In this document: positions 1,287-15,730 of the stretch, piece after piece | Numbering within the stretch: position 1 is the first letter of the stretch | Layout: each line of letters begins with the position of its first letter | Notes under the pieces: generated by a model | What the model was told of the DNA's origin: nothing | What the model saw: only the letters and a program-made list of their open reading frames with translations | Database searches by the model: none | Source: Escherichia coli | GTDB taxonomy: Bacteria; Pseudomonadota; Gammaproteobacteria; Enterobacterales; Enterobacteriaceae | Length of the DNA stretch: 64,000 nt | NCBI RefSeq assembly: GCF_003018235.1 | Contig: NZ_CP027437.1 | Direction: 5' to 3' (one strand) | Program-made: the position numbers and the translations under genes

Positions 1287-4200
1287 TTAAGGAAAAATAA
1301 CCCCGTATTCTTCAAACGCAGCTCTAGCCGCTGCTTCAGATGCAGCGTTCTGAGTTCCAGTATTTCCGAAATGATAATGACCACTGTGAGGGGCTATATC
1401 AGTACCGAATCGTCCATTCACAACAGTAGCCTCTCCCGCCGCAAGAACTGGTTTTCCATTTGCAATTGCAGCATGAGAAATTTCTATCCCATCTTGCATT
1501 TTTGGTGCAGTTAATAGAGTGCCATCCTCAAGAAGGACATACTTTATATCGCCAGCTTCATCAGCCATATCTGCAAAACGTGGGTCTGATGGTTTCATCG
1601 GTTCAACACCGGCCTCTCTCATTGCAGCCAATTCCTCATCTAAATGTTCCGGTAATTGATTTTTAAACGGGCACCCAATAAAACCCCACGGATCACACCA
1701 GCCCACCGGGTCATGCACATACGACTGCGTGTTCATCCCGCCGCTCAGTTTCAGCGGGTCCTGGCTTAAATACTGCCCCGTTCCGGCATCGTAGTAGCGG
1801 TGTAAATTATACCACAGCCCGCTCTCCTCATCCCGCCACTGGCCCATGAAGCCCGCATCACAGCTTTCACGCTCACTGTCCGGCGAGTCGTTTGCTGCCG
1901 GAAGTCCCCACAGGCTGCGGTGTTTCGTCCACACCTTCTGGCCGTTCGCGCTGTACATCTCCTGTGGTGCGCCGTCCGGGCCGGTCACTATCGGGTAAAA
2001 ATGGCTCCGGTCATCATTCGCCGCCCGGCTTTCCTTTGCCAGCAGTTCAAACCCGTCACGGTAATGCCACTGTTCCCGTAGCGCCGGGCTGCCGTCTGCG
2101 TAGCACTTCTCACTGATGGAAAGCGCCATGCCCTGCCACTGGTAGCGCATTTCACTGATGGCGTGGCCTTGCTGCTTCCATGCAGCACGGATAACGCAGC
2201 GTTTTGCGGTTCTCCGGCCAAAGGCGTCGTAGCTGTACTGCCATACCTCACCGTCTGGTGTCTTTATCTCGCGCAGACGGTCAAAATCGTCCCAGCGGTA
2301 GCGCCACTCCTGTGGGCGAAAGCCGCGTTTTTGTTCTGTGCGCTTTGTCACCCTGCCGCAGGCGTCGTATTCGTAGCGGCTGTCGCCCGCCTGAGTCACA
2401 CATTCACGGCTGTACTGGTGCTGCGACAGAATGCCGTTTATCCGGCTTTCCGCTATCTGCTCGTTTACCGTATAGCGGTAGCGTTCTTCCTGCGCCGGGC
2501 CACCGGCGTCCAGCCGCAGTACGCTGGTTATCTGGTCGCGGGCATCGTACTGGTAGCGCGTTTCCCGCTCCGTGCGCGTTTTCGACCACACTTCATGCCC
2601 GGTCAGGCGGCCCGATTTATCCCACGCGTAGCGGTGTTCGCCCAGCGGTCGCCACGACGCCACGCTCTGGTGACCGCCAGCCAGCCGCTCTGCGCCCTGT
2701 TTTTGCCATGCCGTACGCCCGCAGGCGTCATATCCCTGCTCCTGCATATACACCGCATGGTTCAGCGGCGTCTGTGCCAGCCAGCTTTCCTCATTCTCCG
2801 GGCGGTAACGTCTGCTTTTTTCCAGCCCGGCGGGGGAATGACCGAAGTCCATCCGGTGGCCGTTGCTGCGGTAGCCCATGAGAATGCCCGAAGCATCGTA
2901 TTCTCTCTGTGTTTCCCCGTCCGGCGTTGTGGTGCCCGCCAGCCGTCCGGCTTCGTCGTAACGGTACTCCGTGCGCTGGCCATCCTGCTCTTCCGCCACC
3001 AGGCGATGACGTTCGTCCCACTCCAGTTTTACCTCGCTGGTCAGCGTGTAACCTGCTTCACTGGCATCACTGCGCTCATACACCTGCGCGCTCACCATCC
3101 GGTCATAATGGTCGTACTGATAACAGAGTTGCTGATGCTCGCCGCTGATGGTCGTCACCCGGCCATAGCCATCCCGCGCATAGCGCCATACGCTACCGTC
3201 CGGGCGGTGTTTTTCTGCCAGTCGGCCCTGTTCATCACGGATATAGACGGTTCTGCGTCCGGACCAGTCATCCTCCCCGGCCATCTGGCCCGCTGCATCA
3301 TAGTGCAGCCGCCACTGCTGGTTGCCGCTGCGCGTAAGCTGCGTCAGCCTTGCGGCACCGTCGTAGTTGCAGAGTATCCGCTGCCCGCCCGCGTCTTCCA
3401 CTTCCCGCAGCAGGTCAAATGCCCCGTGGCGGTAGCGCGTGGCCTGCCCCATGGCCCCGGTGTGGAGGGCGATTTTGCCTTCACCGTCATAGCGGAAGGT
3501 TTCCACGCCGCCATCGGCCCGGATAACCGCACTCAGTTTCTCATGCGGGTTATCAGCACCGGGGCGGTACTGCCAGTTCATGCTGCGCCCTTCCGCATCC
3601 ACCAGCCCCGTCAGCCGCAGCCAGCGGTCTTCCGTGTAATGGGTCGTGCGGCCTTCAGCATCCGTATGGGAAAGCAGGCCACCGTGGGCGCTGTAGCCCC
3701 ACTGTTCGTGGCTGCCGTCCGGGTATGTCACTTCCTTCAGCAGACCGTCTTCGGTATGACGGTACTGCCATTTTTGCCCGTTCACTTCCCGCCGGATAAG
3801 GTTCCCTTCGGCGTTATAGCTATAAGCTGCCGTGGTGTGATGGTCACGGTAGGCCGTTACCTGGCCGAACTCATCCCGCTGCCATTCACGCTTGCGCCCG
3901 TTCTCGTCCGTTTCGCTCAGGATACGCCCGGCGTAGTCGCGTTTTATCTGTGTGATACGCCCGCCCGGCTGGCGGATACACAGCGGCTGGTCGTATTCGT
4001 TACGCTCCCATTCAGTGATACGCCCCAGCGGGTCACGCTGTTTTTTCAGCAGCCAGGATTCATCGAACCACAGCGTGGTGGTGGCTCCGGTGGCGTCGGT
4101 ATAATCGGTTCTGCGCTCATCAGGGAAGTAGCGGAAGGTGTCGTTATACAGGCCTTCCTGTGTGCCTGTGGCAGTCACCCGGCCTTCATCGTCATAGCGC

Positions 4201-5813
4201 AGGTGGAAGTGCGTCGGGCCATTGTCGCGCCAGGAACTCAGCCAGCCCTGTTCGGTATAGGTATAGTGCAATGCACCATTAAAGCGGGTCTGTACATCAC
4301 GCAGCCGCTGCTCATCGCCGTGGCTGATATAGTCGTAACGCACCAGCTCGCTGCCGTCTGACTCGTCGGTCACACGGAATATCTGCCCCTGCGGGCCACA
4401 CCTCACCCGCAGACTCAGGCCGCTACTGTGGGTTACGTTTGTCAGGTGGCCGATGGCGTTATAGGTGAAGCGAATTTCGTTGCGGTTGCGGTCTTTTATT
4501 ACTGTTAGCCGCAGACGACGTGCGCCGGGGGAGATGGGCGTAAAGATATAACCCAGTTGTGAGTATTCGTCGAAAATAATAGCCCGCTCACGGTTTCCCA
4601 GGAGGCGATAGTGCGGGACAAGCAGGTTACGGCTACTGTATGGTGCCTGCTCCGTGGAGTAGGCCGGACATAGCCCCTCAGCATCAAAGTAGGTGACGTT
4701 TTTCCCGTTGCTATCGAACTCCAGAAACTGCGACCAGTTACACAACCAGCGACTGCCCAGCAAACCACTAACCGGATGTCGGCCTGTATAAGCACGTTTC
4801 AGCGTCAGCGGTAAAATATGCGAATAGTTGAAATCAGTTCGGTAATCCAGATATTCACCCGTTCCGGTATCCACCGGATCGCTGAACCCCTGACTGATAC
4901 GCTCATTGGCGGCTCTGTTTAACTGCTTTGCTCCCCATAGAGCTGTTAACACCTCCAGACTTGATACAACAGATTGTTCCAGTACCGTCATATCTGCATT
5001 AATCGGCCCATACTGTCCGGTTGTCTTATCAGCCGTGATGGTTTTACATCCTTCCTGAATAACTGCCGAGCAGGTAATTTTATGGCCCTTACGCGCCAGC
5101 GGCAGGCTGTTGACGGAAATAATTTTGCTCCCTTCCACTATCTGCGGAGGAGGACTGCCCGGATCCTTACTACATTCAACCGGATCAGTGACGCGAGCTA
5201 CCGCTTTTCCTTCAAAAAAAACATTAGGTGAGCCTTCTACAATCTGCCCGGTTTCAGATGCCCAGCGGGAACCAATTACCATCGCTGCACCACCGACAAA
5301 TCCACCAGCTAATCCCCCGGCCCCGGCAGCAACGGTGGCAGCAAGCACACCCAATGCGGCGCCCCCTGTAGCGACAACCAGAGCCCCCACTGCAATCCCT
5401 ACGATAAGTCCACCGATTAACCCACCAATAGCACCCAGAAAGGAATTGTTATGAACAATGTGATGACCCACACACGCCGGTATATCTGTTGGGCCGGAAA
5501 CAGCGTGATCTTTACCCCAGGTATCCATGAACCAGTCACCTGCTTTGGTGCCCAGCCATCCCCCCAGCATCCCGCCAGCCAGTCCGGCAATCAAAGGGCC
5601 TCCAAATCCTGCAACAGCTTTGGCTATTCCGGCTGCACAGGTATTTGCTGCGGCGGCTGCCAGTCCCACCTTTGCCGTTGCTCCCACCATGCTGACAGCC
5701 ATTATTCCAGTACTGGCAATATGTCCTGTGGTAGCAATACTCTCCACTGTTTCGGCATTACTGTCCCGTTGGTCCAGCTCCGCTAACTTCTCCTGCGCGC
5801 TTTTTTCCGTCAT
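1287..5813 (-). CDS. rhs: Rhs-family T6SS effector, 1508 aa. Layout: N-terminal hydrophobic Gly/Ala segments, a split PAAR domain, the YD-repeat shell, then a variable C-terminal toxin.
   Basis: Many YD repeats (YDxxGR-type). PAAR-like motifs GKAVARVTD and LPLARKGH. Core-end motif YVHDPVGWCDPWG, followed by a roughly 130-aa divergent tail. SD GGAAGGA lies upstream of the ATG at 5813. Sits directly downstream of a DUF1795/Eag gene. Confidence 0.92.
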   Translation of the reverse strand: MTEKSAQEKLAELDQRDSNAETVESIATTGHIASTGIMAVSMVGATAKVGLAAAAANTCAAGIAKAVAGFGGPLIAGLAGGMLGGWLGTKAGDWFMDTWGKDHAVSGPTDIPACVGHHIVHNNSFLGAIGGLIGGLIVGIAVGALVVATGGAALGVLAATVAAGAGGLAGGFVGGAAMVIGSRWASETGQIVEGSPNVFFEGKAVARVTDPVECSKDPGSPPPQIVEGSKIISVNSLPLARKGHKITCSAVIQEGCKTITADKTTGQYGPINADMTVLEQSVVSSLEVLTALWGAKQLNRAANERISQGFSDPVDTGTGEYLDYRTDFNYSHILPLTLKRAYTGRHPVSGLLGSRWLCNWSQFLEFDSNGKNVTYFDAEGLCPAYSTEQAPYSSRNLLVPHYRLLGNRERAIIFDEYSQLGYIFTPISPGARRLRLTVIKDRNRNEIRFTYNAIGHLTNVTHSSGLSLRVRCGPQGQIFRVTDESDGSELVRYDYISHGDEQRLRDVQTRFNGALHYTYTEQGWLSSWRDNGPTHFHLRYDDEGRVTATGTQEGLYNDTFRYFPDERRTDYTDATGATTTLWFDESWLLKKQRDPLGRITEWERNEYDQPLCIRQPGGRITQIKRDYAGRILSETDENGRKREWQRDEFGQVTAYRDHHTTAAYSYNAEGNLIRREVNGQKWQYRHTEDGLLKEVTYPDGSHEQWGYSAHGGLLSHTDAEGRTTHYTEDRWLRLTGLVDAEGRSMNWQYRPGADNPHEKLSAVIRADGGVETFRYDGEGKIALHTGAMGQATRYRHGAFDLLREVEDAGGQRILCNYDGAARLTQLTRSGNQQWRLHYDAAGQMAGEDDWSGRRTVYIRDEQGRLAEKHRPDGSVWRYARDGYGRVTTISGEHQQLCYQYDHYDRMVSAQVYERSDASEAGYTLTSEVKLEWDERHRLVAEEQDGQRTEYRYDEAGRLAGTTTPDGETQREYDASGILMGYRSNGHRMDFGHSPAGLEKSRRYRPENEESWLAQTPLNHAVYMQEQGYDACGRTAWQKQGAERLAGGHQSVASWRPLGEHRYAWDKSGRLTGHEVWSKTRTERETRYQYDARDQITSVLRLDAGGPAQEERYRYTVNEQIAESRINGILSQHQYSRECVTQAGDSRYEYDACGRVTKRTEQKRGFRPQEWRYRWDDFDRLREIKTPDGEVWQYSYDAFGRRTAKRCVIRAAWKQQGHAISEMRYQWQGMALSISEKCYADGSPALREQWHYRDGFELLAKESRAANDDRSHFYPIVTGPDGAPQEMYSANGQKVWTKHRSLWGLPAANDSPDSERESCDAGFMGQWRDEESGLWYNLHRYYDAGTGQYLSQDPLKLSGGMNTQSYVHDPVGWCDPWGFIGCPFKNQLPEHLDEELAAMREAGVEPMKPSDPRFADMADEAGDIKYVLLEDGTLLTAPKMQDGIEISHAAIANGKPVLAAGEATVVNGRFGTDIAPHSGHYHFGNTGTQNAASEAAARAAFEEYGVIFP

Positions 5814-5843
5814 CTGTTCGTCCTTCCCGCTGAACTGGCTGGG

Positions 5844-6275
5844 TTATTTATCCTGCGGCATTCCAAAACAAAAATTCAATAATGCTCCCCGCATCGCTTT
5901 ACGATCCTCCTCTGCCAGCGCCTGTGTTGAGGAATAGGTCAGCGTCAGTACTTGTCGCTCGTTCAGAATTACCAGCAGCAACTGCTGTATCATCACCCCC
6001 TTGTTATCCCAGCTAAATTCCCAGTATTCCGCCGGGCGCTCCTGTACATGACAGCGTTCTTCGACGGTGAACACCATTTTCGACAGTTCGGTACGGAATT
6101 TCTTTTTCTGCACCGCCAGATAGTCATCAAACTGCGCACCATCCGGCAATATTTCACGGGTAACAACAACATTAGCCCCGGCAATCGCACTTAATACCGG
6201 TGTCAGAATATTCATACTGCTGTCCTGCCAGTTTCCTGGCAGGGTGAAATGTCCTTCATTAATTAGATATTGCAT
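5844..6275 (-). CDS. eagR: Eag-family (DUF1795) T6SS effector chaperone, 143 aa
   Basis: N-terminus MQYLINEGHFTLPGNWQDSSMNIL is typical of DUF1795. Located between vgrG and a PAAR-Rhs gene with TM segments, as for EagR/SciW in SPI-6. Confidence 0.8.
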   Translation of the reverse strand: MQYLINEGHFTLPGNWQDSSMNILTPVLSAIAGANVVVTREILPDGAQFDDYLAVQKKKFRTELSKMVFTVEERCHVQERPAEYWEFSWDNKGVMIQQLLLVILNERQVLTLTYSSTQALAEEDRKAMRGALLNFCFGMPQDK

Positions 6276-6480
6276 TCTCTTCCCCTGACATTAATTAAAA
6301 AAAATACCATTGATTTAATAATTGAATAACACCAAGATACTTGCATCATGAGTTTATATAGTTTTCCCGCCAACCTATATTTGTTTTTTCACACAAATAA
6401 GAATGTACTTACACACAAACCAATAAATCCACTGGTATCTAAAATAATTATTCTTTACATTATCTTAATCACAGATTTTA

Positions 6481-6930
6481 CTAATGGTTTCTCAAAAAAA
6501 TCTTTGCGTAATTAGGATTATTTAACTCTAAGTTCACCACATTAGATTTAAAATTATAAAAATCCGCATCTCTATCATCCTCTGTAACCTTTGAATCAAC
6601 CGTCGACCACACATTCGTATAAAAACTACACTCATGCTTTCCTGGCGTAATATGGTAATCTCTGGCAATTTGTACATAGTCCCCCACCTTCATTTCTCCG
6701 GGAGAGATTTTGTAATATTCCCCTTGTCCAAGGTTGTACATTACACCTGAATAACGAATCTTCTTGCCATCACATTCAACACTCAATTGATCGGAGCTCG
6801 GATATTTACCTTGAGATATGTACCTGACATCTATATATAATGGAATTTCACCATTATTTTTAACACGTACAGCAACATAAACGTCATCTTCTTTGGGTAT
6901 AACATCCACAATAACCATGTAACATGGCAT
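6481..6930 (-). CDS. Hypothetical beta-rich protein. Candidate immunity or inhibitor for the VgrG C-terminal metallopeptidase (149 aa from the ATG at 6930).
   Basis: AT-rich ORF starting 17 nt after the vgrG stop. No signal peptide or lipobox is visible. The start is ambiguous (ATG at 6930 or 6918; the tool's upstream start overlaps vgrG). Confidence 0.45.
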   Translation of the reverse strand: MPCYMVIVDVIPKEDDVYVAVRVKNNGEIPLYIDVRYISQGKYPSSDQLSVECDGKKIRYSGVMYNLGQGEYYKISPGEMKVGDYVQIARDYHITPGKHECSFYTNVWSTVDSKVTEDDRDADFYNFKSNVVNLELNNPNYAKIFLRNH

Positions 6931-6946
6931 CCATAAATTAAGCCTT

Positions 6947-9784
6947 TTATTCAAAATAACGTTCAAAGTTATAAGCACTTTGTAATGAGGCCCGCTTACC
7001 CTTTTTAGCTAGATCTATACCACCACTTCTTAAACCCTCATCAAAACTTCCGAGCACATCATAAAAATGTGACATTTCATGAATCAAAGTTATGACTTGT
7101 GAATCACGACCGTCCAGGGGATCGTCAATAAATTTATTTCCAAGATAAATGGTATGGGTATAATCTCCATCATTAACTCTTCCATGAACATTAACATCCA
7201 TAAATTCAAAATTTTGGTACTTAATCCCCTCATTAATTTCAATTTCTTTTTTTACAGCGTTTAAAATTTTATTCCTGGCTGCCTCATCATCAACACCGAA
7301 TATATTTCCAAAACGCTCTTTATCGTTATCATTCCAACGAATCAACTCATCTCTTGCTGATTTTAATTTTTTACGCTGCGCTTCAAGAACAAGTTTCATA
7401 TCATTTTCACTGATCCTTTTCTCCTCTATCATTTCATAAACAGGATTTCCATAATTATCTGTAAGAGGTTTTCCATTATATCCAATTATAGCTACTCCAT
7501 TACCCGGCCCTGATGTAGAAAAATCTCTAATTGTATTAATTTTATATTTACCATTTGCGTCACTACCGCCAGGATTCAGTGCCAAGTGAGTAGGTCCATC
7601 AAGGATGATAGTGCCGTCTGAATTCATCACGAGAGTGCTGCTTCCCACAGTCAACGTAATGTTCGTTGCCGCAGTCAAATGAATGGCACCAGATTTTGAT
7701 GTGATGGTAATATCCCCTTCGACAGTCTCCGTGCAGGTTCCCGTTTCTACCGTCACTTCGCGTTTACCCGTTTTCACCGTCAGAGACTGGTCACCTTCTG
7801 TCACAGTAATATCCCGGTTGCCTTTGATGGTTTCGGTGTGCTTACCCTCAACAAATTCTGTGCGATCGATTTTTACCGTAGATGTTTCGTTATGAATGAT
7901 GGTTTTCGTCCGATCTGCCTTTACCGTGTGTGTTTCGTTATTTTTCACGACGGTATTCAGATCTTTCTCCGCAAGAAACCTCACTTCTTCCGCACCTGTT
8001 TTATCGTCAAAGCGCAGCATGTTTCCGTTGGTCGGCCCGCCATACAGCGAGTGGCTGAATATCCCGCTCTGCGACGCCATGCCCGGCAATCCCCACGGCG
8101 GCATGGTGTCCTGGTTATAGGTGCGCCCTACAATGATCGGTAAATCCGGGTCGCCGTTTTTGAAATCCACCAGCACTTCCTGGCCGATGCGCGGGATCTG
8201 GATCATCCCGAATCCTTTCCCCGCCCACGGGTAGCTGACGCGGATCCAGCAGGAGCTGTTTTCGTCATTCTTTCCGTAACGGTCCCAGCCAAACTGGACC
8301 TTCACCCGGCCATATTTATCCGTCCAGATTTCCTGCCCCGCAGGGCCGGTGACGATGGCGCTCTGCGGGCCTTTGGTGTGGGGTTTGCTCAGGGTTCGCT
8401 GTGGGCGGTAAACTTCGCTGGTGGGATGCAGTTCAAACGTGGTGACATAGGTAAAATGCTGCTCCTGACCGCTGTGCTGCGCATTATCCCGTAAAAACAG
8501 CGTGGTCTGTACCAGTAGGTATTCCTGGTTGACCTCTGCCGTTGGATGATTCATCAGCGTAAAGGTGTAACCCGTCATGAGGGTGCGGATATGACCTGCC
8601 CCATGTGCCCGGCTGCCGGGGCTGCGCTGCGCTTCCATACGAATGCGCGTCAGCATCTCGCCTTCGCCCGTAGTGAAGTAATCACCAGGCCATTCATAAT
8701 GCTCGTATTCAGCATGACCGGTATCACGCGGACTAGCCACGGTACTTTTAAGCAGCGAACGAGGCTTCATAAAATCAAAATCGTCCATCACCCACTTTCC
8801 AGTACGTAGCCTCTCACTGGCCGTAATGGTGTGGATAAATTCCTTGTCCAGTTTCAGACCTTCCTGGTGCCACTCCACCAGTGGCGAGTCAGGGCACGCT
8901 TTATGACCATTGATGGCATCCGCCAGCACCAGCGTATGGCTGTTCTCGCTGTGCTCAAACCACCAGTAAATTCCCCACTCCTGCATCAGGCGCTGGATGA
9001 AATCAAAATCCGTTTCACCGTACTGTACCTGCCAGGCACGAGGTGGATAATTTTCCACCAGCCGTTTTTCCACCGGAAAGGAATATTCATCCAGTACTTC
9101 ATCGAGAATATCCACCACGGTTTTATTCTGGAACGCCTTGTAGTCGCTGGTATGGGTCAGCAGCTTCAGCCATGGCTCAATGCGTAATTCATACGTTACC
9201 GAACGGCCCTCATGGCCGACCACCCGCGCTGCCGTCACCAGCCCGCTGATATACCGTTTTTCGCCACCGTCCAGTTCAATACTGACGCACAGGTCTTTGC
9301 CCACCATGGGCTGAAGCGGCAGGTTGGCAGCGGGAGAAACGTAACCCAGGTTCAGGATGTCCGGCGTTTTAAGCTGTACTGTGTAGGAAAACAGATTCCC
9401 AAGTCCTTCCGAACCATTCATGCCTGCAAACAAAAGCAACTGCGGCGGCACCGCGCTACCACTTACTGTGACGTTATGCGCCCCCGGACCACCGGCTGCA
9501 AGCGACGACGCCGCATCCTGAACTGTACCAGCCATATCCGAGATCCCTACTGCAGCAGCGGCAGCCTGCGCAGCAGTTACTGCAGCTTTAACCAGACCTG
9601 ACGGTTCCGGCAACGCACCAAACAGGTCCGCCGCGGCCTGTTCTGCCATCTCCTCGGCGGCACCAGATACATCGGTTACGGCTGAACTGGCGCTTACAGC
9701 ACTACTTTCTCCGGCTATCGGTGGCGTGGAGATAGCTGGCCCACCGTTACTGCCAGATTTATTACTCGTAGATACAAAACTCAT
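6947..9784 (-). CDS. vgrG: Evolved VgrG spike protein, 945 aa. It has an Ala/Ser-rich N-terminal extension and a C-terminal aspzincin-like (M35-like) zinc metallopeptidase domain.
   Basis: gp27/gp5-like core ([12 protein letters not shown]..., beta-helix repeats [25 protein letters not shown]...). The last roughly 207 aa are AT-rich and contain TLIHEMSHF (HExxH at nt 7067-7081). An Asp lies 9 residues after the second His (GSFDEGL), which is the aspzincin spacing. SD AAGGAA lies before the ATG at 9784. Confidence 0.9.
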
Positions 9785-9808
9785 GATATTTATTCCTTTA
9801 ATATCGGA

Positions 9809-10180
9809 TTAGAATTTAGCGCCCGGCGGCCAGAAAAAATAAGAAATAACCCGCCACTGTCCATCTTTATAATGAAAAAAACATGTCAGATTTAAATCCC
9901 CCCGCAAATGCCAAAACATTTCTTTGATGGGAATATTTCTGAATTTAGGATTTGTTGAGCGATAGGTGTTTTCAATTTCTATATAATACTCACCGACAAA
10001 TTTATAACGAGGATTTATAAATTCATACGCTGGCTGACCATAGTTATTTAATAGAACATTCTCTTCAACTCCATTATACACACCACTCGCATTCAGATAA
10101 GCATGCCCAGGAATATCAGACATGCTATTTTTCGCCCCACCCACTATCAAAAAAATTACCACAGCGTATATTAGTTTCAT
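9809..10180 (-). CDS. Secreted (signal-peptide) small protein, 123 aa. Putative periplasmic immunity for the upstream HELGH metallopeptidase.
   Basis: N-terminus MKLIYAVVIFLIVGGAKN is a classical signal sequence. Its start overlaps the upstream stop as ATGA (10177-10180). AT-rich. Confidence 0.6.
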   Translation of the reverse strand: MKLIYAVVIFLIVGGAKNSMSDIPGHAYLNASGVYNGVEENVLLNNYGQPAYEFINPRYKFVGEYYIEIENTYRSTNPKFRNIPIKEMFWHLRGDLNLTCFFHYKDGQWRVISYFFWPPGAKF

Positions 10181-10911
10181 TTTTTTACGCTTTTCACAAA
10201 AAAATTAGAACCCGGAACCATTCTATTTAACCGCTCAATGACATTTCCCATATAACGAGAGCGCAGTTCCATACCAATATTCATTAACGCACTGGCGTCC
10301 CCGGAGAATGGTGTAGTTGCTTTATCTGCATCATCACTATAGTATTCATCAGCAAGATATCCAATAATATGCCCAAGCTCGTGAGACAGCCCTATTTGCT
10401 CATGGCAAACTTTTGATGAGCCAAGACATTTAGCTGCTGCAACTATATCTTTAGAGTCAAGTTCAACGTATCGACTATTCCAGACAATGGAACTCTGTCG
10501 AAAACTATTTGGATCATCATTATCAATTTTAAACACCACCACATCCCAATACCCATGACGATCAGTCTGAATTATTTCTATTGAGAAAGATAAATCCTTA
10601 CCATTAAACTTACTGGCAAACTCAGACTTCCCAGAAACGGATAAAAAAATCTTATTATTCCATGTTTGATTAATGACAAAAATAACTTCCCCATGAAAGG
10701 TATTTTTCTCCAAATCTGTCCAGTCAGTTTTTGCATCCCATCTTTTTATCCAATTATATTTCCATCTCAGCAACAATGAGATTGCACCATTTTCACGGTC
10801 AATTCTTAAATCTCCCCAGGCATCATTGTCCCTGAAATATCGTTTATCCAGCATTAAGTCGTCATAAGCATCGTATGCCTGCTGAATAGCCTCATCATGA
10901 GAGTTACCCAT
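10177..10911 (-). CDS. Putative T6SS effector: zinc metallopeptidase with a HELGH motif, 244 aa
   Basis: HExxH at nt 10369-10383 in the context GLSHELGHIIGYLADEY, followed by ALMNIG (a possible Met-turn). Strong SD AAGGAGG lies 5 nt before the ATG at 10911; the tool's GTG at 10917 lies inside the SD. No signal peptide. Located between tagF and vgrG. Confidence 0.65.
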   Translation of the reverse strand: MGNSHDEAIQQAYDAYDDLMLDKRYFRDNDAWGDLRIDRENGAISLLLRWKYNWIKRWDAKTDWTDLEKNTFHGEVIFVINQTWNNKIFLSVSGKSEFASKFNGKDLSFSIEIIQTDRHGYWDVVVFKIDNDDPNSFRQSSIVWNSRYVELDSKDIVAAAKCLGSSKVCHEQIGLSHELGHIIGYLADEYYSDDADKATTPFSGDASALMNIGMELRSRYMGNVIERLNRMVPGSNFFVKSVKK

Positions 10912-10943
10912 GATCACCTCCTTATATTGCTATATATCCAATA

Positions 10944-11102: not shown

Positions 11103-11867
11103 TTATTTTTTCTCCAGTCGCAAAGCATCCACATACCGCCCTTCGCTGTTCTGCTGCCAGAACCAGCCCTGCCCCTGCTGCGCCTGCGTCAGCATTTTGT
11201 CCGGCCAGCCCGGCCACGGCAGGTGGCGCACACCGGGCAGTTCCACTACCGGCGCATCCGGCAGCCCGGTGAGTTCCCGGCTACGCTGCGGCACACGTCG
11301 TAGGCCGCGCAGCCATTGCGTCCAGCGCTGCCCCGGTCGCCACATCGCCCAGAGCTGGTCGGCCTGCTCTGCCAGTCGCCCGCGCCGTTCCGCCTGTGGT
11401 GCAACCTGCGCCGCCACCAGCCGCGCCAGCCAGTACAGCCAGCCCTGTGTGTCATCCAGGCTCTCTTCCAGCCATTCCCGCCCGGCACACTGGTAAATCA
11501 CCAGTGGCCACGGCCTGCCCGTACTGTCACGCGAGGCGGTCAGTACCCCGGTCAGCCACTCATCGCGCCCACCAATGGGTAAAAATCCCGGCGATAAAAC
11601 AAAGCTCCACGGTAGCGGATGGTGTTCCGGCACCGCCGTTTTCTCGCGCGGTGACAGATGCATCCAACCGTCAGTTACTCCGGTCTTCGCAGCATCCGTT
11701 CCTTCCGGCAGAACAATATGCCGCCCCTGTCCCAGCCACGTCTGCTGGTTCAGCCACGCCTGCCACACCTGCCCTTCGTTCGCACTCACCCGCCAGCGCA
11801 CATAGTCCCGCTGGTCCGGCAGTCTGCCGAACATCGCCGGAGCCGATACCACTGCCCGGCGAATCAC
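11103..11867 (-). CDS. tagF: TagF (DUF2094) T6SS accessory protein, 254 aa
   Basis: N-terminal FGRLPDQRDYV matches the TagF signature GKLPxxGDFV. GTGA overlap with the tssM stop. An alternative ATG start exists at 11834. Confidence 0.75.
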   Translation of the reverse strand: MIRRAVVSAPAMFGRLPDQRDYVRWRVSANEGQVWQAWLNQQTWLGQGRHIVLPEGTDAAKTGVTDGWMHLSPREKTAVPEHHPLPWSFVLSPGFLPIGGRDEWLTGVLTASRDSTGRPWPLVIYQCAGREWLEESLDDTQGWLYWLARLVAAQVAPQAERRGRLAEQADQLWAMWRPGQRWTQWLRGLRRVPQRSRELTGLPDAPVVELPGVRHLPWPGWPDKMLTQAQQGQGWFWQQNSEGRYVDALRLEKK

Positions 11868-14800
11868 AGCGCTCGCTCCGGGCAGGCGAAGCGTTGCAAT
11901 AGTCCGCGATCCACTGGGTCAAAATCCCGTCCGGCGGTGATTTCCAGTATCACCCGCCGACCATCAAAGCTGTACTCCACCTGCTGTGTTCCCCGTACCG
12001 CCGTTTCTTGCGCTTTTCCCGCATCCAGCAGGTGAAACAGCGCCCACGGTCCATTAGTCAGCAGCGTCGAGGTGTCCTGGCGGATGCGCGGGCTGGCGGT
12101 TATTTCCGCCATTGAGCCGTTGCGCGGACCCGGCCAGTTAACTTTCAGCGGCCTGACCGGGCCGTGAGCGTAACGCAGTACCTGGCCGTCAATGTCAATC
12201 ACCAGTTCGGTGATGGCCGGGTCCATATCCACGACGCGGACCTGCATCGCCCATGAGAACTTTTTCCCTCCGTCGCCGTTAAAAAACACGCTGCGGATCT
12301 GTTTCGCCTCCTGAAACGGCGTCAGGTCCGGCCCCTGTAAGGTCATGTTGCCTTCGGTCGGTTTGTAGCGCCACGGATTGCTGGCGGTGTCCGCCTGTGG
12401 GGCCAGTTGCTTCGTCCAGAAGGCATCCAGCACGCCGCCGCTGGCAAAGATACGGTTAAAATCGTCCGCGCTGACCTCCTGCGGGCTGTCGGTGAAGGGG
12501 TAGCGCCCGTCGATGGCGTCGCGGCACTCATCACCGATCACCGCTTCCATCTGCGCGTTCAGCACTTCACCGGTGCCGGCGTTGATTTTTCGCGTTCCCT
12601 GCTGCGTGAGATCCAGCAGAATATTTTTCAGCGGCGCGGGCAGTTTTGCCGCCTCCAGTTGCAGTTTATCCGCCGCAGAAATGCGCCCCGGCAGAGTGCT
12701 CGCAGCCAGCGCACTGTCGGCAATGGTGAGCTGAGTGTAATACTCATTGAGCATCGTCAGCAGCGAATTTAATTGCGGCACGCCGCCGCCCTGCCCGCTG
12801 TCCGTCCGCCCGGAAACCACTTCCCGCAGGGCGGCGAAGCGGTCTTCCACCAGTGATTTTTCCAGCCGCTCTTCCGGGTGAATGTCCTGCAACAGCTTCG
12901 CCGTCTGCACCGCTTTTCCCGCATTGCCGGAGAGCCGGTCCTGCGCGCGCTGGGCCATCTGCTTTTGTCTGGCCTGCGCATCCAGAGGCGGCACCAGCGT
13001 GGTCTGCACCACCACCGCTTTACTCAGGCGCATCAGCGGGGAATCCGGCGAGGCCAGAGTGCGGAGCACCTGAAGGTCATACGCTAGTCCAGGGCTACCG
13101 TCCTCCCCGGCGCTGTTGATGCTGTGAATGCTTGCCAGAAAATCCTGCCATCGGCGAGCATATTCAGCCAGGTACAGACGACGTACCTCACGGGTAACCG
13201 GGAGTTCCTGCCCCGGTAGCTGACTCATCACAATATCAGTCGTTTTTTTTTGCGCACTTTCCCGGCCCATCACCCAGGCGTCGTCCGCTGATGCGGCGGC
13301 GACAAACTCCGACAGCCGTTTGTCGAACAGTTCCCGGTAGCCTTCGCGGGTGAAGATGCCGGGCACGCCCCTGTCCAGCGGCGCGCCATCCGTGCGGACA
13401 AAAACCGTTCCCGCATCCGCGCCCACAGCGCGAACCAGCGAAAACTCCTGCGGTGCTTCGCTCTCCATGGAAGCCAGGGCTCGAGTGTAGATACGCTCAG
13501 TGCTGTTATGGCCGTCAAGGAAGGCCCGCGCCTGGCGGATCAGCCCCTCATCTTTTTCCCAGGGCGAATGCACCACGCGGCTGCCGTCAAACAGGGCGTC
13601 AATATGCTCCAGCACGGCTGCGCGACCGCCAAACTCCGCTACGCTGTCGCGGTTGTCCAGATCGTTCAGCACCCAGGCGTGGATCTCCGCCGCGTTGTAT
13701 TTGTCCTCGTGGTCCTTATCGAGGTTCAGCAGCAGATAAACATGCAGGGCGTCATAGGCGGCTTTGCTGTCCTGACGCGCAATCGCATCTGAAAGCACGT
13801 ATTCCATTCGTTTCACCAGCGGAGGGAGCAGTAGCTGGTCCAGCAGGCGGTCATACAGGGATGCGACACTCTCCATCACCGGCGGGACGCTGTAAAGACC
13901 ATAACGCCAGGCCAGCGGCGGCGAGTCCGGGTCCATCCCCGGCCAGGCAGAGAGCGCCCGCGCCTGATTCAGCAGGGCCGGAACAGGCTGCATAGCAGGT
14001 TTTCCGGTATAGGCTTTGACATCACCATCCAGTTGGGTCGTCCGGCTGGCGATTTCATTCAGATAACCGCTGTTACCCTGCTGGCTACCCTGCATTCCCT
14101 GCCACAACCAGAAAACCAGCGCCAATACCAGCAGATGCCCGCCGGTACGCAGCAGGCGATAACGCCAGGCCCATTGAAGATTCGGCTCCACCAGGTGCGC
14201 TTCGCGGAAGATAAACCGCGTCAGTAGATCGTGCAGGAAATAGCTGCGGTTGCCGTCCGGCAGGGTATGGGATGGGGAATCTGCCTTCCCTTTGATCGCC
14301 CGGACAAAACGCTGCCAGATGCCTGTCTGATCGGCCACCGCGTCTGCCTGCGCCTGCGCGGCACTGGTGAAAAATACGCCGCGCAGGGTGTTGTTAAGCT
14401 GGGTAGCATCAAATTTTGAATCGAGGAAAATCTGTTCAATAGCTTCCAGCAGCGGCGCGCCCAGCGCGGCAAATTCACGCGGGAAGCGGTAGAGCCGCTG
14501 ACGGCTTTTAAGGTCGTACTCTTCCTGCAACCGGGTATCCAGCCCCTGATCCAGCCGCTGTGTCAGGTTTGCCAGTTCCCGGCCACAGAGCGCATGCAGC
14601 GACTGCGGATCGCTGGCGTGACGCCTGCGGCTGTAAGGCAGGGTGAAGCCCCAGACCTGGGCTCGCAGGTGACTGGTCAACCCACGGAAATACTCCGTAA
14701 AGCCCGGCAGCAGATCCATCTTGGTGACAACCAGATAGACCGGAAAACGAATGCCCAGCGTCTCCCGCAGTTCCGCCAGCCGCGCACGCAGAGCTGCACA

Positions 14801-15730
14801 GGCAGCCAGCCGTTCCGCCGGGGACTGCGCGGTCAGATCCGCCACGTTCAGCGTCAGGATCACGCCGTTGAGCGGTGCGCCTGGGCGGTGTTTACGCAGC
14901 AGCCCCAGAAACCCCTGCCATTCCCCGGCGTTACGCTGGGTCGCGCTGATTTCGCCGCCGTCATCGTGTCGGGCATAGCGCCCGGCGGTATCAATAAGCA
15001 CTGCTTCGTTGGTAAACCACCAGTCGCAGTGCAGCGTGCCGCCGCCCGGCACGGTGAGGATATGCGCGGTCTGCTCCATCTGCTCCGCCAGCGGAAACTG
15101 TAGCCCGGTGTTAAGCAGCGCAGTGGTTTTACCATCGCCGGGGCTGCCGATAACCATAAACCACGGCAGTTCGTACAGAAAACGCTTTCCTTCCAGGACT
15201 TTTCGCCAGCCAGGAAGATCCACACGCAGTTGTTTCAGTTGCCGGATGGCGCGGCTGACAATATGGCTGACGGTACGCAGGTCGGCTTTAATTTCCCCTG
15301 CCACAGGTACGTCTTCCCCACGCGGATGCAGGAAACGGCGCAGCAGTTGTTCATCCAGACGCAGCGCCCGCCACAGCCGGTACAGGCCATACAGAGCATA
15401 AGTCAGCAGGATCAGACCGATAAGCGTCAGACGCAGCCACAGCGGCGCAAATGGATGAACATCACCGAGGGACAGCAGGGGTGAAACAAAACCGATGACC
15501 AGGCACAGAACCGTCACGCCAATGATGCTCATCGACCAGTTAACCAGCCACAGTGCGAGGAACATCAGTAACAGAACGATGGTGACTACCCGACTTCCCA
15601 CGGACGCGAGCGGATGCAGGGTGTCAAACGCCACCAGCGGCCCAACAAACCAGACCAGCAACGCCAGCATCACCACGCCAACAATGGCCAGCGCGCGGCG
15701 GGAAAACAGCATACTGAGAAATTTTTGCAT
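11864..15730 (-). CDS. tssM: TssM (IcmF-like) membrane complex protein, 1288 aa
   Basis: Three N-terminal TM segments, Walker A GSPGDGKTT, and the size and position typical of IcmF/TssM. Confidence 0.93.
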   Translation of the reverse strand: MQKFLSMLFSRRALAIVGVVMLALLVWFVGPLVAFDTLHPLASVGSRVVTIVLLLMFLALWLVNWSMSIIGVTVLCLVIGFVSPLLSLGDVHPFAPLWLRLTLIGLILLTYALYGLYRLWRALRLDEQLLRRFLHPRGEDVPVAGEIKADLRTVSHIVSRAIRQLKQLRVDLPGWRKVLEGKRFLYELPWFMVIGSPGDGKTTALLNTGLQFPLAEQMEQTAHILTVPGGGTLHCDWWFTNEAVLIDTAGRYARHDDGGEISATQRNAGEWQGFLGLLRKHRPGAPLNGVILTLNVADLTAQSPAERLAACAALRARLAELRETLGIRFPVYLVVTKMDLLPGFTEYFRGLTSHLRAQVWGFTLPYSRRRHASDPQSLHALCGRELANLTQRLDQGLDTRLQEEYDLKSRQRLYRFPREFAALGAPLLEAIEQIFLDSKFDATQLNNTLRGVFFTSAAQAQADAVADQTGIWQRFVRAIKGKADSPSHTLPDGNRSYFLHDLLTRFIFREAHLVEPNLQWAWRYRLLRTGGHLLVLALVFWLWQGMQGSQQGNSGYLNEIASRTTQLDGDVKAYTGKPAMQPVPALLNQARALSAWPGMDPDSPPLAWRYGLYSVPPVMESVASLYDRLLDQLLLPPLVKRMEYVLSDAIARQDSKAAYDALHVYLLLNLDKDHEDKYNAAEIHAWVLNDLDNRDSVAEFGGRAAVLEHIDALFDGSRVVHSPWEKDEGLIRQARAFLDGHNSTERIYTRALASMESEAPQEFSLVRAVGADAGTVFVRTDGAPLDRGVPGIFTREGYRELFDKRLSEFVAAASADDAWVMGRESAQKKTTDIVMSQLPGQELPVTREVRRLYLAEYARRWQDFLASIHSINSAGEDGSPGLAYDLQVLRTLASPDSPLMRLSKAVVVQTTLVPPLDAQARQKQMAQRAQDRLSGNAGKAVQTAKLLQDIHPEERLEKSLVEDRFAALREVVSGRTDSGQGGGVPQLNSLLTMLNEYYTQLTIADSALAASTLPGRISAADKLQLEAAKLPAPLKNILLDLTQQGTRKINAGTGEVLNAQMEAVIGDECRDAIDGRYPFTDSPQEVSADDFNRIFASGGVLDAFWTKQLAPQADTASNPWRYKPTEGNMTLQGPDLTPFQEAKQIRSVFFNGDGGKKFSWAMQVRVVDMDPAITELVIDIDGQVLRYAHGPVRPLKVNWPGPRNGSMAEITASPRIRQDTSTLLTNGPWALFHLLDAGKAQETAVRGTQQVEYSFDGRRVILEITAGRDFDPVDRGLLQRFACPERAL

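Follow-up and report, generated by a model that had tools for sequence, protein, structure and literature searches.

Organization of the vgrG Locus

The window analysed here is a stretch of 64,000 nucleotides of Escherichia coli (contig NZ_CP027437.1), and this report concerns one vgrG gene of its type VI secretion system (T6SS), the AT-rich extension at the 3' end of that gene, and the small open reading frame (ORF) immediately downstream. The extension is predicted to encode an aspzincin-type metallopeptidase toxin, and the ORF a free-standing homologue of the aspzincin pro-domain that would act as its immunity protein. The region corresponds to the E. coli T6SS-1 island, which is adjoined by a tRNA-Asp gene in the near-identical MEI003 genome. 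All genes of the T6SS-1 stretch described here, from tssM to PAAR-Rhs, were located on the minus strand (Table 1). The gene encodes an evolved VgrG, with a complete gp27/gp5 spike core and an in-frame C-terminal domain, predicted to be an effector, in one ORF of 945 codons. The core matched Pfam Phage_GPD (E=2e-101), Gp5_trimer_C and Phage_base_V as well as NCBIfam TIGR03361 (E=1e-165).

The original prediction, made from the sequence letters without database searches, had described a switch to AT-rich composition in roughly the last 207 codons of vgrG (6950-7570). This boundary was recovered by comparison with E. coli strain S10, in which an ordinary VgrG of 739 residues ends in LALNPQ and is directly followed by the DcrB gene. 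In the blastn comparison with S10, positions 6277-7571 of the window were unmatched; vgrG homology stopped at 7572, and the extension started from codon 739 (nt 7570). The GC content was 0.27-0.39 in the cassette, with 0.31-0.38 over ~6300-7570, and ~0.5-0.6 in the vgrG core. The locus was a mosaic, with 87% identity to S10 on the vgrG-core side (7572-10049) and 98% on the DcrB-Rhs side (5000-6276), which suggests that the cassette arrived by recombination together with a foreign vgrG 3' region. Three of the 5,426 complete E. coli genomes contained the full cassette, namely the environmental isolates MEI003, VCSW7 and VCSW5, and segment 5800-7700 was 99.7-99.8% identical to them. The DcrB/Rhs side alone was common to 91 further complete E. 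coli genomes. There was no ORF of 60 or more amino acids on the plus strand within 6481-7570, and a promoter and terminator scan of 6150-7100 showed no terminator-like site and promoter-like sites at or below the shuffled expectation.

RefSeq (PGAP) labels the cassette vgrG as a pseudogene 'missing C-terminus' (L001 13149-15986 and L002 7147-9984, which correspond to 6947-9784 of the window) and leaves the toxin domain unannotated. The ORF of 945 codons was unbroken in the window and in all three complete genomes carrying the cassette, and the pseudogene label is an annotation artefact. Because of this label, a word-indexed protein search returned fragments of the toxin and not the full-length protein; for toxin and ORF alike, it returned near-identical E. 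coli entries only. NCBI names the toxin fragments in other records 'M35 family metallo-endopeptidase'.

Table 1. Features of the cassette and the surrounding T6SS-1 locus (positions in the window), followed by free-standing pro-domain genes outside T6SS contexts (positions in their own loci).
Feature	Position	Strand	Evidence or remark
AT-rich cassette, 1,295 bp (linker, predicted toxin domain, putative immunity gene and 204-bp spacer)	6277-7571	minus	blastn vs S10
Linker, about residues 739-761	7502-7570	minus	alignment A3; not conserved in PAAR-borne relatives
Predicted aspzincin-type zinc-metallopeptidase toxin module, about residues 762-945 (stop codon 6947-6949)	6950-7501	minus
Putative immunity/inhibitor gene, 149 aa	6481-6930	minus
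AT-rich spacer within the cassette, from the immunity gene to the DcrB/Eag-type gene	6277-6480	minus
vgrG, intact ORF of 945 codons	6947-9784	minus
vgrG core, residues 1-738 (gp27-like hub, OB domain, gp5 trimerisation beta-helix, partial DUF2345-like extension)	7572-9784	minus
DcrB-family (Eag-type) gene	5844-6275	minus	Pfam DcrB E=9e-27
PAAR-Rhs toxin gene, after DcrB	1287-5813	minus	Pfam RHS_repeat, PAAR_motif, DUF6531
Small AT-rich gene pair upstream of vgrG	10177-10917 and 9809-10180	minus
TagF-domain gene	11103-11867	minus
tssM	11864-15730	minus
Free-standing pro-domain genes outside T6SS	L025 7730-8281; L069 7298-8008; L046 8580-9317; L031 6273-6854
Free-standing pro-domain genes outside T6SS	L057 6074-6748; L072 6213-6833; L042 6263-6934

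The C-Terminal Domain of VgrG

The HExxH motif of the extension is H902-E903-M904-S905-H906 (HEMSH; CAT GAA ATG TCA CAT, 7081-7067 on the minus strand), and it aligned with the HExxH of two solved aspzincins, AsaP1 of Aeromonas salmonicida and the peptidyl-Lys metalloendopeptidase GfMEP of Grifola frondosa. Asp915 (7042-7040, minus strand) lies nine residues past H906 in the context G-S-F-D. Both elements had been read correctly in the original prediction, as had the aromatic-rich end of the protein. H902, H906 and D915 are the predicted zinc ligands, and E903 is the predicted catalytic base.

The profile search that had been proposed as a check was run, and Pfam Aspzincin_M35 (PF14521) matched residues 819-944 (nt 6953-7330) over nearly the full profile (positions 6-141 of 142; E=2.4e-6), with a score of 28.5 bits, slightly below the curated cut-off of 30 bits. 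T6SS-linked relatives nearer to the canonical type scored above this cut-off, with 112 bits (L016) and 42 bits (L011). When the toxin was searched against all PDB sequences with phmmer, the sole meaningful matches were AsaP1 (E=1.6e-4) and GfMEP (E=0.016). A four-sequence profile of VgrG- and PAAR-borne toxins (A3), for which relatives were collected from other loci, matched AsaP1 and GfMEP in the PDB with E=5.3e-8 and E=4.8e-5, respectively. These matches bear out the earlier aspzincin-like assignment, and the toxin module is almost certainly homologous to the aspzincins of the peptidyl-Lys/AsaP1 branch.

A motif survey covered 85 classical aspzincin genes and 17 T6SS-linked ones, retrieved through a genome-wide scan. 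All 102 sequences had the ligand Asp at +9. The window had been assigned the canonical motif GTxDxxYG, but its sequence is G-S-F-D-E-G-L-R; the first half, with its Asp, holds, while the terminal Tyr-Gly is replaced by Leu-Arg. Tyr was present at +12 in 85/85 classical aspzincins, while in the window clade this position was Leu in 10 of 11 members and Phe in the remaining one (Chimaeribacter). Only two of the 17 T6SS-linked toxins kept the motif Tyr, a residue that is catalytically important in aspzincins. The C-terminal helix SAYNFERY of the window aligned to NADNHEYF of AsaP1/GfMEP, with the pocket Asp changed to Tyr and the Glu retained. The pattern N-A-D-x-x-E on this helix constitutes the acidic S1' pocket and gives Lys specificity. 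As both the pocket Asp and the motif Tyr are changed, strict Lys specificity should not be assumed for the toxin. GfMEP (PDB 1G12) shares with the window the HExxH, the Asp at +9 (in GTxD) and the C-terminal helix, but it has GTKDYAYG and NADNHEYF where the window has a divergent motif and helix, so its Lys specificity is not assured for the window. The His-to-Asp spacing of nine residues, which had been taken to define the aspzincins, fits the peptidyl-Lys/AsaP1 branch but not the whole family, since in deuterolysin the third zinc ligand lies ~32 residues downstream. The toxin is filed here as a divergent aspzincin homologue with predicted endopeptidase activity. Taken alone, it is a further case of a known type, as metallopeptidase-tipped VgrGs and a T6SS effector of PF14521 have already been described.

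The Downstream ORF and Aspzincin Pro-Domains

The ORF at 6481-6930 was confirmed to be beta-rich, with mostly beta-strand predicted in an AlphaFold run with a 6-sequence alignment (a single-sequence run gave a predicted local distance difference test score, pLDDT, of 46). In sister strains, the gene starts at an ATG equivalent to window position 6934 (MDAMLQVIVDV..., 150 aa). Compared with MEI003 and VCSW7, the window has a 1-nt insertion at 6917, which puts the ATG at 6934 out of frame and leaves ATG 6930 (149 aa) or ATG 6918 (145 aa) as usable starts. At least 20 public contigs have the 145-aa form in their annotation, so the insertion represents an allele in circulation rather than an error of sequencing.

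The ORF matched nothing in Pfam or NCBIfam, nor any PDB sequence directly. PDB matches of the ORF or of its profile (carbohydrate-binding module E1, designed 'Scone' propellers and urease) were rejected as chance-level or repeat-driven, and AsaP1 was not found in these searches. An exhaustive HMMER search of 1.84 billion representatives with the ORF gave only six, all of ~150 aa, from E. coli/Shigella/Salmonella (one variant on 260 contigs), Superficieibacter electus, Salmonella serovars and Pseudocitrobacter, Cronobacter malonaticus, and a metagenome contig. In the alignment of this family (A2), 19 positions were invariant, and identity with the E. coli protein fell as low as 28%. C54, C102 and the C-terminal H150 (P0001 numbering) were invariant in A2, which is unusual for a beta-sandwich in the cytoplasm, and were not conserved in the exported relatives described below. 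These residues could make up a metal site, or H150 could extend to the zinc of the protease.

The A2 hidden Markov model (HMM) was run over all ORFs of the fetched loci. It matched the cognate downstream ORFs and also the N-terminal region (residues 50-165) in over 15 classical aspzincin precursors, which were 360-420 aa long. The matched region was always upstream of the catalytic domain on the same polypeptide, and this region is the pro-domain. A profile of 40 aligned aspzincin pro-regions (A4) matched residues 9-164 of AsaP1 in the PDB with E=1e-39. In hhalign, A2 aligned with A4 over 131 columns with a probability of 96.7% (E=4.1e-10) and, in a repeat run, 97.0%, while the controls gave 0.4% (A2 against the catalytic-domain alignment) and at most 0.3% (reversed A2 and ten column-shuffled versions). 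In the opposite direction, the A4 HMM matched the window ORF at E=1.7e-7 among 13,021 ORFs, and all of its other matches were inside or adjoining an aspzincin gene. The predicted fold of the ORF was the same as that of a solved aspzincin pro-domain. The ORF is thus very probably homologous to the N-terminal pro-domain of aspzincins, the built-in inhibitor of the zymogen. It is encoded by a separate gene downstream of the catalytic domain and is not covalently N-terminal to it, so it is better called a pro-domain homologue than a propeptide. The link between the ORF and AsaP1 became visible only when the bacterial pro-domain profile was used as an intermediate. No model of the bacterial aspzincin pro-region was found in Pfam, and for this reason the ORF had looked like an orphan.

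Among the possibilities first considered was that the ORF is not the immunity protein at all, which is now unlikely because of the pro-domain homology and the co-occurrence with the toxin on different carriers. An ORF entirely unrelated to the toxin, such as a beta-sandwich protein placed there by chance, would agree with the lack of direct database matches, but this explanation is largely refuted by a specific pro-domain homology obtained with three independent methods and by an adjacency that is conserved across carriers and genera.

In Ideonella/Rubrivivax-like genomes, free-standing pro-domain genes with signal peptides were located just downstream of classical secreted aspzincin precursors (Table 1), which indicates that pro-domain detachment also takes place outside T6SS contexts.

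Carriers of the Pair and Orphan Immunity Genes

The pair of toxin and small ORF was VgrG-borne in E. coli and Enterobacter sp. ENT03, and its toxin was the C-terminal module of a PAAR protein in Cronobacter malonaticus (where the locus is part of a T6SS cluster), Chimaeribacter and metagenome contig L009. Polymorphic toxin cassettes typically show such shuffling among carriers. The vgrG core and the toxin module of Enterobacter sp. ENT03 were separated by an in-frame stop (L010 654-656), which may mark a pseudogene, a site of read-through or a cargo that is translated on its own.

In several Salmonella serovars (L005 7213-8465; equivalent in L006-L008), the vgrG core was deleted and its first ~45 codons were joined to the toxin. 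The toxin was frameshifted in an A-run, and the 154-aa immunity ORF was intact and followed by DcrB and Rhs. A Pseudocitrobacter member was placed with the Salmonella-type immunity proteins by cluster membership only. Superficieibacter electus carried an orphan immunity homologue (L003 8001-8453) with 57% identity and no toxin gene nearby; it was flanked by an IS110 transposase and Rhs fragments and is labelled 'CARDB domain-containing protein' in UniRef. Complete E. coli genomes had no megablast match to the Salmonella and Superficieibacter loci. That orphan immunity genes have been kept speaks for a role against incoming toxin and not for a producer-side role alone. The ORF is probably the cognate inhibitor or immunity protein of the toxin, with binding and protection as predicted properties.

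We consider it very unlikely that the module is decaying or catalytically dead and that its HExxH has no present function. The broken relatives in Salmonella and Chimaeribacter, the in-frame stop of ENT03, the frameshifted start of the immunity gene in the window, the lost motif Tyr and the RefSeq pseudogene label are all in line with decay. However, the vgrG ORF is intact in the window and in the three complete genomes with the cassette. The toxin module was 44-54% identical on PAAR carriers (Cronobacter, L004, and contig L009) and in the Salmonella remnant, and across this divergence HEMSH, the ligand Asp and 60 further positions were invariant. The conserved positions of the immunity family, retained down to the lowest identity, also speak against decay.

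Export Signals and Site of Action

The original prediction had noted that the ORF has neither a signal peptide nor a lipobox, and this was confirmed. The immunity ORFs of all eight members of its clade had no room for a signal peptide. The beta-sandwich began within ~5 residues of the ATG in 8/8 proteins, and in 6/8 a stop codon was found 1-11 codons upstream of the ATG; together, these features make a signal peptide impossible. An upstream GTG at 6978 was considered as the start of a signal peptide and rejected, as the stretch that follows it belongs to the 3' end of the toxin in a different frame, lacks conservation and is interrupted by stops in relatives.

In the more distant T6SS aspzincin pairs, the pro-domain-like partner had a Sec signal peptide or a lipobox in six of six cases. 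Four of their toxins (in Trabulsiella, Rahnella, Phytobacter and Parasulfuritortus) were cargo effectors encoded beside VgrG. Of the other two, one was a cargo effector beside PAAR, in a Planctomycetaceae metagenome-assembled genome (MAG), and one was a PAAR fusion, in a Pirellulaceae MAG. The Trabulsiella protein by itself bridged all groups in phmmer searches. In a rough neighbour-joining tree of the toxins, made without support values, the signal-peptide-less clade was monophyletic and nested among the exported-immunity pairs, and every member of this clade was a VgrG or PAAR fusion. Judged from these comparisons, pro-domain-derived immunity is a general feature of T6SS aspzincin toxins, and the missing export in the window clade looks derived. 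The distant pairs probably act in the periplasm. For the toxin of the window clade, our best guess, at about even odds, is action in the target-cell cytoplasm or at its cytoplasmic face, a site to which the missing export signal and the retention of the immunity gene where the toxin has decayed both point.

Cytoplasmic action is made plausible by T6EC12 of Methylocaldum szegediense, a T6SS effector of PF14521. According to the passages on it in the preprint, T6EC12 was toxic in E. coli, in the cytoplasm as well as in the periplasm, and its HExxH was needed; the neighbouring gene product T6IC12 was predicted to cover the catalytic cleft (bioRxiv 10.64898/2026.09.28.754971). Compared by description only, T6EC12 differs from the window toxin, as those passages present it as a two-domain cargo effector of more than 340 aa with HELSH at 301-305 and not as a VgrG fusion (bioRxiv 10.64898/2026.09.28.754971). 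In the passages on T6IC12, there is no mention of pro-domain ancestry (bioRxiv 10.64898/2026.09.28.754971).

The main alternative is that the toxin acts in the periplasm and that the ORF is only a producer-side pro-domain in trans, a chaperone and temporary inhibitor during VgrG assembly that offers no protection against incoming toxin. We regard this as unlikely, although the exported partners of all six distant pairs point to the periplasm for the wider family. Classical aspzincin pro-domains are intramolecular chaperones as well as inhibitors, and a catalytic domain fused C-terminally to VgrG or PAAR cannot carry an N-terminal pro-domain in the usual way. However, siblings would be killed by a periplasm-acting toxin if they had no immunity in the periplasm, the exported relatives evidently need no cytoplasmic partner to fold, and the persistence of an intact ORF beside a broken toxin (Salmonella) or without one (Superficieibacter) is hard to reconcile with a pure chaperone.

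Less likely still is that the domain serves mainly as an anti-eukaryotic effector, with the ORF as the cytoplasmic safety catch of the producer and not as interbacterial immunity. Such an effector would require inhibition in the cytoplasm only. AsaP1, the closest solved relative, is lethal to fish and was deposited in the PDB as a 'toxic extracellular endopeptidase'. Fungal M35 proteases are described as virulence factors (PMC12924839), and T6EC12 is reported to kill yeast as well (bioRxiv 10.64898/2026.09.28.754971). Against this, the T6SS-1 island is rich in antibacterial pairs, with Tae4/Tai4, a tlde1-domain protein and PAAR-Rhs in the near-identical locus of MEI003 and glucosaminidase/Tgi2PP in VCSW7. 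In addition, persisting orphan immunity genes are a hallmark of conflict between bacteria, and the carrier strains that were found are environmental isolates. The orphan immunity genes weaken both the periplasmic and the anti-eukaryotic explanation.

Comparison with VgrG2b

The original prediction had drawn a parallel with VgrG2b-PA0261 of Pseudomonas aeruginosa. The parallel holds for the architecture, which in both cases consists of an evolved VgrG, a C-terminal HExxH metallopeptidase and then a small immunity gene, and also for the statement that the immunity protein of VgrG2b is periplasmic. VgrG2b was toxic in the periplasm only, and PA0261 needs its signal peptide (PMC6899460). The parallel does not extend to the peptidase family, as the C-terminal domain of VgrG2b is a DUF4157-type peptidase in which Glu983 is the additional zinc ligand (Wood et al. 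2019, PMC6899460). In the window, the predicted zinc ligand is an Asp at +9 and not a Glu, and the immunity gene has no room for a signal peptide. Membership of the window toxin in the VgrG2b family was rejected, as DUF4157 was not found in the Pfam search and VgrG2b was not among the PDB matches at E<=10 (sequence) or E<=1 (profile).

Proposed Mechanism

The reading that we favour, with a probability of roughly 0.6, is that a mobile toxin-immunity cassette (6277-7571) became attached to the 3' end of vgrG in the E. coli T6SS-1 island and that its two genes represent a split zymogen, in which a free cytoplasmic pro-domain would silence the protease. The catalytic half would be carried on VgrG (on PAAR in relatives), and the pro-domain half would be made as a separate cytoplasmic protein. 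In the AsaP1 zymogen, the propeptide inhibits by occluding the active-site cleft. By analogy with this propeptide in cis, the free pro-domain would bind over the active-site cleft of the toxin. The bound pro-domain would keep the protease silent in the producer and perhaps aid its folding, and the free pro-domain would also neutralise toxin coming from sibling cells.

Several points weigh against this reading. Zinc binding, proteolysis, toxicity, binding of the ORF and protection by it are all predicted from sequence, and plugging of the cleft in the manner of the AsaP1 propeptide is proposed from homology. The toxin scored just under the PF14521 cut-off, and with Leu in place of the motif Tyr the enzyme may work differently or weakly. 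The immunity allele of the window is frameshifted at codon 6 and depends on an alternative ATG. The invariant C54 and C102 are more typical of an exported protein. As all more distant T6SS relatives have exported immunity, the ancestral target was probably the periplasm, and a purely cytoplasmic target would be a derived and conjectural state.

A wider and more tentative proposal, to which we give somewhat less than even odds, is that T6SS aspzincin toxins in general are split zymogens whose detached inhibitory pro-domain was recruited for immunity, that within this single homologous superfamily the immunity protein later lost its export in the VgrG/PAAR clade, marking a retargeting of the toxin from periplasm to cytoplasm, and that the free pro-domain may double as a chaperone in trans.

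The split-zymogen reading can be set beside known arrangements of protease and inhibitor. The AsaP1 zymogen (PDB 2X3A/2X3B/2X3C; M35) is a single Sec-exported polypeptide, and its pro-domain acts in cis and is removed after secretion. In the window, by contrast, each half has its own gene, with the catalytic one fused to a T6SS spike. Both halves lack a signal peptide, and other residues stand in place of the motif Tyr and the S1' Asp. Free-standing, trans-acting inhibitors that resemble propeptides are known, namely those of the MEROPS I9 and I29 types and the SpeB inhibitor Spi. These, as well as the intracellular proteinase inhibitor Ipi of Bacillus subtilis (PDB 3ISY), act on serine or cysteine proteases and do not belong to the T6SS immunity proteins, and the likeness of Ipi to the ORF is in fold only. 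In the literature searched, there was no report of a T6SS immunity protein derived from the pro-domain of the toxin itself. Propeptide-like inhibition in trans is thus known elsewhere, and the pro-domain origin of the immunity protein is the new element relative to that literature.

Such an origin gives a ready and testable mechanism of neutralisation, the occlusion of the cleft as in the AsaP1 zymogen, and the fission of a zymogen is one concrete route to an effector-immunity pair. Homologous pairs with exported and with cytoplasmic immunity proteins offer a natural experiment on how the location of immunity relates to the site of toxin action. The locus also exposes an annotation problem, in which an intact vgrG is marked as a pseudogene, an immunity family has no Pfam or NCBIfam match, and no Pfam model was found for the pro-domain.

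A Second Gene Pair Upstream of vgrG

The small AT-rich gene pair directly upstream of vgrG (Table 1) was also present in the ordinary E. coli strain S10. The first gene encodes a 246-aa protein that contains HELGHIIGYLADEY, another HExxH, and has a weak match to Pfam Peptidase_M64 (E=0.011). The 123-aa ORF downstream of it begins with MKLIYAVVIFLIVGGAKNS, which resembles a signal peptide. These two genes may be a second metallopeptidase effector pair, in this case with an exported immunity protein.

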